A stretch of DNA of 34,231 nt, taken from positions 1 through 34,231 of the IMG/VR virus record IMGVR_UViG_3300035655_000051. One strand, 5' to 3'. Shown piece by piece: positions 33,300-34,231 of this stretch. The stretch comes from a virus (lineage: Duplodnaviria > Heunggongvirae > Uroviricota > Caudoviricetes). Below the pieces are notes generated by a model. That model made no database searches. It was not told where the DNA came from and saw only the letters and a program-made list of their open reading frames with translations. Every line of letters begins with the position of its first letter. Within the stretch, counting starts at the first letter, position 1. Both the position numbers and the translations under genes were made by a program.

Positions 33300-33375
33300 T
33301 GGCAAGCCCATTCCGACTCGAACGGAAATCGACGGTTTTGGAGACCGCAACTTTAACCAATTAAGCTATGGGCCT
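33300..33375 (-). tRNA. tRNA-Trp(CCA)
   Basis: AGGCCCA/TGGGCTT; GCGGT-CTCCAAA-ACCGT; CCA. Confidence 0.94.
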
Positions 33376-33510
33376 ATATGATTGCTGTCTTTCCAGCCGC
33401 CATCGGTTTATGTTTTTGTTCCTTCCGCAGAACTACTAACAATACCATCACATCAGCCGTACGCGCTAATGCTGGCTACAATAGTTGCAACTCGAAAACT
33501 ACTTACCGCG

Positions 33511-33586
33511 TGGTGCAACCGGCGGGTTACGATCCCACTACCCCTTGATTAAAAGTCAAGTGCTCTACCGATTGAGCTACGATTGC
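33511..33586 (-). tRNA. tRNA-Lys(TTT) with atypical T-loop ATCGTAA
   Basis: GCAATCG/CGGTTGC; CTTGA-CTTTTAA-TCAAG; CCA. Confidence 0.9.
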
Positions 33587-33712
33587 ATATAAAAGTCGGC
33601 TTACGCACCCTCGCGAGTTGGCATCATCACCGATAATCAAGGCTGCCATTGTAATAGTAACAGCCCCTAAAAGGCTAATCCTTTGTTCTGCGCAATTTAA
33701 GAATCACTTACT

Positions 33713-33800
33713 TGGTAGGTCAGGTAGGATTCGAACCTACAACGTTTCTGATGTCACAGATTTACAGTCTGCTGCCTTCAACCATTCAGCACACTGACCT
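33713..33800 (-). tRNA. tRNA-Tyr(GTA)
   Basis: AGGTCAG/CTGACCT; GCAGA-CTGTAAA-TCTGT; long variable arm; CCA. Confidence 0.94.
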
Positions 33801-33807
33801 ATATAAC

Positions 33808-34231
33808 GACCACAGAGGGATGTCACCTGTGGTCCTCGTCCTGGCTTTAACGGGTCAGGCGTCCGGCATTTACCGTTTCCTTTAATTGGGAACTATTGGC
33901 GATATGCTTTCCACTGCGGTTCTCAAACTCGATCATCCTTTTGGGTCAAGCCCCTCTGGGTTATAGCCGCGCTACATAAGGTTTTTCGGTGTTATCCCTT
34001 CACCATGCCTACTTTGTTTCAGGATGTCACCGATAATGTACACTTTCGACAACATAATCAACTACAAGAAACTTTCGGTCTTGTCGTGGCTGGACTCGAA
34101 CCAGCGGCAATGGGTGGGGCTCACCTTGCTCTACCATCGTCTGAGCTACACGACCATATAAACTGTTTTCGAGTTGGTGAGACTCACGCACAGTTGCGCT
34201 CGGAATGCGGATCTTACATCGTCAGGGCACG
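33808..34231 (-). ncRNA. Candidate large multibranched ncRNA (GOLLD/ROOL-like), 5' part running off the window
   Basis: No ORF in the track; nested stems with GAAA-rich loops, a long-range closing helix and loop-loop complementarity; located in a phage tRNA island. Confidence 0.55.
34081..34155 (-). ncRNA. tRNA-like element with degenerate anticodon arm and no CCA
   Basis: GTCGTG/CACGAC acceptor, GCTC/GAGC D-arm and GCTGG-TTCGAGT-CCAGC T-arm; anticodon region GGTG-AGCCC-CACC lacks U33. Confidence 0.7.

Follow-up and report, generated by a model that had tools for sequence, protein, structure and literature searches.

To our knowledge, the non-tRNA RNAs of phage tRNA clusters have been without a known role ever since RNAC and RNAD of phage T4. 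These two small RNAs, encoded among the tRNA genes of that phage, are thought to be cut from the tRNA precursor, and PMC3014915 gives their roles as unknown. The giant RNAs GOLLD (RF02032) and ROOL (RF03087) occur in phage tRNA islands; bioRxiv 10.1101/2024.12.08.627333, which reports cryo-EM of GOLLD, ROOL and OLE, takes covarying adjacent loop bases that stay self-complementary as evidence for interchain pairing. Theta ribozymes, as described in PMC10879173, are structured RNAs located directly 3' of gut-phage tRNAs. The Y RNAs YrlA and Yrn1 combine a tRNA-like domain, a non-standard anticodon arm and a stem with a CCGAA motif, according to PMC4201824.

The locus analyzed here resembles all of these systems and differs from each. 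As in T4, small non-tRNA RNAs lie among phage tRNA genes, but here at least five modules appear to be exchanged between phage groups, and the likeness is one of description, the stability of the present RNAs being presumed. With GOLLD and ROOL the locus shares the tRNA-island setting and the loops with covarying, self-complementary adjacent bases, but it matches neither model, has no conserved long-range core and is built of modules of 75-200 nt; true ROOL is encoded separately, in other arrays where one of these modules (F) is found as well.

The window covers bases 1 to 34,231 of a virus record of 150,250 bases, a gut phage of ~150 kb (G000) that encodes DNA polymerase III alpha, DnaB and NrdD, as well as an MrpR-like domain just past the window end. 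For the last 856 nt of the window, the original prediction proposed a giant ornate non-coding RNA with embedded tRNAs, either a GOLLD/ROOL relative or a new class of large RNA. The tRNA array lies on the minus strand and runs from 35995 to 31936, beyond this stretch, which is thus the middle part of a longer array (Table 1). The tRNA-Lys and tRNA-Tyr noted in it were confirmed. The stretch had also been described as non-coding, and this label stands, because the one 123-codon plus-strand ORF (34005-34376) is open in just 1 of 21 loci with these modules. In most relatives (e.g. L010:6983, L011:6947), a tRNA with the anticodon CUA (amber reading) is found where the window has tRNA-Trp.

Table 1. 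Coordinates of the tRNAs and RNA modules in the window
Feature	Position	Strand	Description
tRNA-Trp(CCA)	33300..33375	-	downstream boundary of the stretch; ARAGORN, Rfam
module G	33376..33510	-	self-closed multibranch RNA directly after tRNA-Lys
tRNA-Lys(UUU), CCA encoded	33511..33586	-	ARAGORN, Rfam
module F	33587..33712	-	predicted pseudoknotted ~110-nt RNA directly after tRNA CCA
tRNA-Tyr(GUA), CCA encoded	33713..33800	-	ARAGORN, Rfam
module E2	33805..34004	-	~200-nt multi-hairpin RNA
module E1	34005..34081	-	tail hairpin of the tRNA mimic
tRNA mimic	34082..34155	-	acceptor, D and T arms; then E1
module D, 3' half in window	34163..34231	-	whole module at 34163-34295 in the genome

Relatives were collected through an upstream ORF of 213 aa, which retrieved 76 viral loci, and from metagenomes, where 51 family loci were found among 118 matches and the other 67, being chance matches, were dropped. 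The pooled set, including the window and one further locus, comprises 117 family loci, and presence and absence of modules were counted in 80 distinct complete arrays. A scan with a 106-aa ORF returned mostly the same phage family. The label "septicolysin-like" found no support for the 213-aa ORF, and the PHROGs assignment of this protein is phrog_1491.

The stretch is a row of independently gained and lost RNA modules (D, mimic+E1, E2, F and G) rather than one giant RNA. The 80 arrays display 17 presence patterns, and all five modules coexist in only 8 of them. Neither D with G (p=0.39) nor E1 with E2 (p=0.65) shows significant co-occurrence; the sampled arrays are kin, so that all such counts overstate the number of independent events.

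According to the original prediction, a single GOLLD/ROOL-like molecule, possibly closed by a 12-bp inverted repeat, would carry the mimic, tRNA-Tyr and tRNA-Lys. The location in a phage tRNA island agrees with this, the perfect repeat (33488-33499 / 34165-34176) is indeed present and rare by chance (when the 856 nt are shuffled 2000 times, 1.1% of the shuffles contain a perfect inverted repeat of at least 12 bp), and the palindromic loops described below recall the bridges of GOLLD and OLE. Moreover, 31 of the 37 loci with both arms can still form all 12 pairs, 3 of them perfectly and 28 using G-U. However, the helix is broken in the remaining 6 and compensatory changes were not seen in any of the 37; 70 other loci have the 5' arm only, 2 the 3' arm only and 8 neither, some of these loci being cut short. 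The 5' arm belongs to D and the 3' arm to G, which is absent from 42 of the 75 D-bearing arrays and is also found without D. Furthermore, the 3' arm has a predicted partner inside G, and arm and partner are both kept in a phage group that lacks D and E2. The second long-range helix, of 13 bp, forms 11 of its 13 pairs in the window as predicted but is not kept among relatives: in the 61 loci with E2, its 5' arm, which lies in E1 and is part of the E1 stem in most folds, is absent from 38, and the helix has 4 pairs in 4 loci, 10 in 18 and 11 in the window only. The long-range helices fail because one arm is often absent and because each has a partner within its own module, and among the relatives no long-range helix was conserved that would link the domains into a single molecule.

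The covariance models point in the same direction. With the region extended, GOLLD, including its conserved 3' domain, gave no match at the gathering threshold or at E<=10 (the positive control being for ROOL only), and ROOL gave none in G000 or three relatives, whereas the ROOL model scored 305-306 bits in 2 of 5 other phage records, where its gene stands apart, downstream of a copy of F. Rfam assigned a family to none of the modules, whether in the window and its extension, in a further 120 kb of the genome, in 13 relatives or at 12 distant loci. The reading as one giant RNA is therefore largely refuted by the presence patterns and now seems extremely improbable; what survives of the original prediction is conserved structured RNA without an Rfam family, distributed over several modules. 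A practical lesson is that a giant RNA should be proposed from complementary arms spanning a tRNA array only after their presence and absence have been compared.

The smaller motifs noted in the stretch fared unevenly. The direct repeats, an 11-nt word at 33627/34027 and GGATGTCACC at 33818/34022, are present but depend on a base found in no other genome of the set (1 of 54 E1-bearing loci has them), and an 11-nt direct repeat occurs in 5.7% of 2000 shuffles of the 856 nt. That all spacers fold is not borne out by energy, which does not rise above the shuffled background (z is 0.06 for 33801-34079 and, with 20 shuffles, -1.31 for the whole stretch; by module, D +1.23, E1 +0.91, E2 -0.48, F +0.09, G -1.79), but local structures with compensatory changes do exist. 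These were assessed by pairs changed on both sides and a covariation score, against 500 shuffles; the structures derive from the very alignments tested and the shuffles ignore kinship, so that the figures lean in favour of covariation. With this proviso, the homologs yielded compensatory changes in F, G and E2 and weak ones in D.

Module F has the layout TTAAATT...TTATCGGT...AAGCCGAC and starts directly after a tRNA CCA. In an alignment of 24 diverse variants (A5; 24 of 33 remaining or earlier variants, with 9 F-pattern loci excluded as chance matches or unrelated repeats), 11 of 24 pairs have changed on both sides, with a score reached in 0 of 500 shuffles. The predicted pseudoknot helix is invariant in this alignment, and an F paralog, read by eye, appears to swap two of its pairs. 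F follows tRNAs of the Tyr, Phe, Trp, Ala, Arg, Leu, Ser or Pyl type, or occurs alone, in several phage groups; its palindromic loop is not kept by all distant homologs. Its layout resembles what we take to be that of the pistol ribozyme, a candidate that was rejected as Rfam gives no pistol match. In module G, 8 of 34 pairs have changed on both sides in 22 variants (0 of 500 shuffles), and the core of the apical loop is GTAC or GCGC, the loop being lost in two variants. Homologs of G are found in three records of another phage group, two of them complete by CheckV, in which D and E2 are absent genome-wide.

Modules D and E2 are confined to the family as far as they were searched for: pattern scans retrieved nothing outside it, and an E2 model run on 25 records matched the family control alone. 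Of the modules in the array, D has the widest distribution (75 of 80 arrays). Its 56 variants share 94% column identity and only 1 of 25 predicted pairs has changed on both sides; being nearly invariant, D offers too little variation to test its structure. In the 38 variants of E2, 7 of 45 named pairs have changed on both sides, with a score reached in 0 of 500 shuffles but a pair count reached in 37 of 500, and one of the seven is a mostly mismatched kissing pair. This pair belongs to the first and last loops of E2, for which kissing had been suggested. The loops are complementary at 6 of 6 positions in the window, whereas in 56 of 60 loci an A-C mismatch in the centre leaves 5 of 6 pairs; the mismatch is replaced by G-C in the window and by A-U in one locus, one further locus mends the centre and breaks an end, and one forms four pairs. 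Kissing is thus possible and weakly supported.

The tRNA mimic keeps the acceptor, D and T arms, has a non-standard, variable anticodon arm and lacks an encoded CCA. The prediction of a pseudo-tRNA holds insofar as ARAGORN reports it, at a relaxed threshold only, while Rfam makes no call. A 7-nt anticodon loop with a conserved anticodon, as expected of a functional tRNA, was not found in its 22 variants, where the arm varies and the predicted loops are mostly of 3-5 nt. Such a mimic stands before 81 of 82 E1 matches. The 82 viral stretches with mimic+E1 come mostly from contigs of 40-60 kb outside the family, and 39 of them have no ARAGORN tRNA within 400 nt. At the base of the E1 stem is an invariant CCGAAA / AGTAGG, which presumably fits the S-turn consensus. 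RNAalifold finds no pairs in the sequence alignment; the stem is taken from per-sequence folds, 2 of 15 of which, including that of the window, fold otherwise.

At its tip E1 carries a self-complementary loop (GTGTACAT at 34036-34043 in the window). The loop reads GTG(TA or CG)CAT in 55 of 55 copies, 35 with TA and 20 with CG, across four stem types and without being demanded by the search pattern, so that the hexamer is either TGTACA or TGCGCA. In the scan that permitted all four centres, the 82 matches comprised 64 with CG, 18 with TA and none with CA or TG. Among 59 isolated adjacent double changes, 3 keep the hexamer palindrome, one each in E1, F and G, where ~0.3-0.5 would be expected by our own estimate, the pattern having been noticed post hoc; the E1 switch may represent as few as two events, and those in F and G one each. 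Since adjacent bases are unable to pair inside one loop, self-complementary covariation points to pairing between chains, and as distant F homologs and two G variants depart from the palindrome, predicted dimerisation is best for E1. The sequences thus yield a sharp prediction, namely a mimic+E1 homodimer formed through the palindromic loop, with a built-in TA/CG specificity swap. The dimerisation initiation site of HIV-1 is a hairpin whose loop consists of purines followed by a self-complementary hexamer; the loop of E1 is of the same type, while the sequences are unrelated and dimerisation of E1 is a prediction only.

Taken as a whole, the locus is probably a phage tRNA operon with independently gained and lost structured modules, which probably come free as separate RNAs once host enzymes excise the tRNAs. 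In established tRNA processing, RNase P and 3' trimming define the tRNA ends, and the release of modules would follow from it: one long transcript would cover tRNAs and modules, RNase P would cut the 5' end of each tRNA or mimic, and 3' trimming would stop at the CCA, so that F and G would be released and D would be separated from mimic-E1-E2. The module ends are consistent with this scheme, as they adjoin a tRNA CCA at one end and, at the other, a TAT leader rich in A/U; of 189 distinct tRNA starts, 141 have TAT in the preceding 5 nt, vs 258 of 3510 random positions. Contigs from RNA libraries cover C-D-E2 (C being a hairpin upstream of D) of a relative that lacks mimic+E1 (three runs of one study), although they may stem from DNA and do not reveal ends, strand or level; D is also covered by a contig in one further run of uncertain type. 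The flanking ORFs have no cover in these runs, which is not used as evidence because the runs were found via the non-coding stretch. A promoter scan gave 16 sites vs 13.6 in shuffles, that is, no excess. Modules are 90-99% identical between phages whose MrpR-like proteins are ~32% identical, which fits exchange, selection or both, and cassettes might spread by recombination in the conserved tRNA genes. ORFs resembling HNH or PD-(D/E)XK nucleases by eye adjoin tRNA-Lys in three relatives (L008:7160-7630, L026:6970-7570, L055:7030-7510), and the insertions in L008 and L026 repeat the tRNA 3' end; such ORFs are a possible driver of cassette exchange.

Several other accounts of the modules have to be weighed against release as separate RNAs. 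D and E2, perhaps with hairpin C, could form one RNA of 340-450 nt in which mimic+E1 is an optional insertion. E2 accompanies D in 46 arrays and never occurs without it, the two are directly joined in 17 of 55 arrays and in the contigs from RNA libraries, and 11 or 12 pairs of a 12-bp helix between D and E2 can form in all 61 loci. Yet D lacks E2 in 29 of 75 arrays, neighbours are linked anyway, and the helix has no pair changed on both sides, is in competition with a local helix of E2 and would arise by chance with a probability of ~0.08 (own estimate). Given that E2 never occurs without D and that the two are often directly joined, this RNA remains a candidate, albeit a rather improbable one. 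Still more doubtful is a role confined to the precursor, where the modules would insulate folding or block exonucleases, thereby tuning tRNA maturation, before being degraded. F and G do begin right after the CCA and end at the TAT leader, and theta ribozymes (PMC10879173) illustrate that phage tRNA trailers can serve processing; against this, F and mimic+E1 also occur alone, without a true tRNA, and invariant unpaired motifs together with exchangeable tips point to a function in binding.

Self-cleaving ribozymes that process tRNA ends would explain the position of modules directly 3' of gut-phage tRNAs, as with theta ribozymes, the predicted pseudoknot of F and the words CTGACGA...GAAA in D. 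However, Rfam detects no ribozyme at the modules while detecting twister elsewhere in the genome, and neither Rfam nor our own, uncontrolled descriptor for an HDV-like core (0 matches) revealed the nested double pseudoknot at a tRNA 3' end and catalytic C that characterize theta ribozymes. The hammerhead-like words of D were rejected as well, given that CTGA is part of a helix in which a pair has changed on both sides and that the G of GAAA is variable, and ribozyme activity of one or more modules is very unlikely. No more credit is due to the idea that mimic+E1 serves to decoy a host Ro60 protein in the manner of a Y RNA, in spite of its tRNA-like domain and a stem that starts with G(A/U/C)CCGAAA, near the Ro60 motifs GGUCCGA and GNCGAAN0-1G given in PMC4201824. 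In YrlA, by that account, the motif is at the 5' end and the T arm precedes the D arm, whereas here the motif, GNCCGAAA, with a spacing off by one base, lies 3' of an unpermuted cloverleaf. In addition, Rfam gives no YrlA match at the unit, and a Ro60/TROVE gene was found in 0 of 5 phage records searched, including the ~4 kb around the unit, with a positive control.

Once paired with a second copy through its loop, mimic+E1 would most likely serve as a decoy for host tRNA-binding proteins, which is a guess. Carried further, phages might trade a kit of RNA parts punctuated by tRNAs, in which the mimic, dimerised through a loop like that of HIV-1, would display two tRNA elbows as a decoy for host defences that sense or cut tRNA or as a building block of an RNA assembly put together from separate pieces; this extended picture is speculative, and we consider it unlikely as a whole.

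Within a common family of gut phages, the modules represent four or five families of short RNAs that are not in Rfam and for which natural variants exist; judging from sequence matches, three of them (mimic+E1, F and G) also occur in other phage groups. No description of the modules was found in the literature, and three of their motifs are absent from the part of the PMC10690425 supplement that was searched; some modules may be among the 10,006 candidates of that study.

A better match to a giant ornate non-coding RNA with embedded tRNAs than the 856-nt stretch is an RNA of ~450 nt at genome position ~34770-35213 on the minus strand (L001:4770-5213), 500 nt past the window end and right after the phrog_1491 gene. 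Its outer closing helix is kept in distant phages despite different sequence, and it contains AAAGYT-like repeats. The tRNA inside it is inserted in a variable arm of this RNA, is called Gly, Tyr, His, Phe, Leu or Ser in relatives and is absent from several distant ones. RNA-library contigs from three studies cover it partly, one bridging the inner tRNA; among Rfam families it has only a weak RAGATH-27 match (E 0.32).

Further structured elements were observed around tRNA genes of these phages. In G000, a second tRNA cluster at 64600-65750 and 68450-69150 (minus strand) has structured spacers, a CCGAAA...AGTAGGC hairpin and GGAAAGAC hairpins that resemble the end of G. Another module beside tRNA-Lys, with a predicted H-type pseudoknot, is shared between phage groups (L010:6890-6980, L034:7150-7240, L541:1320-1410), and a Type-P5 twister ribozyme (46.5 bits) is located at L003:6615-6705 (genome 76615-76705). 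Upstream of D, modules C (genome 34296-34409) and B (34565-34651) are long hairpins with swappable interiors that lie between tRNAs, C being present in at least three types.
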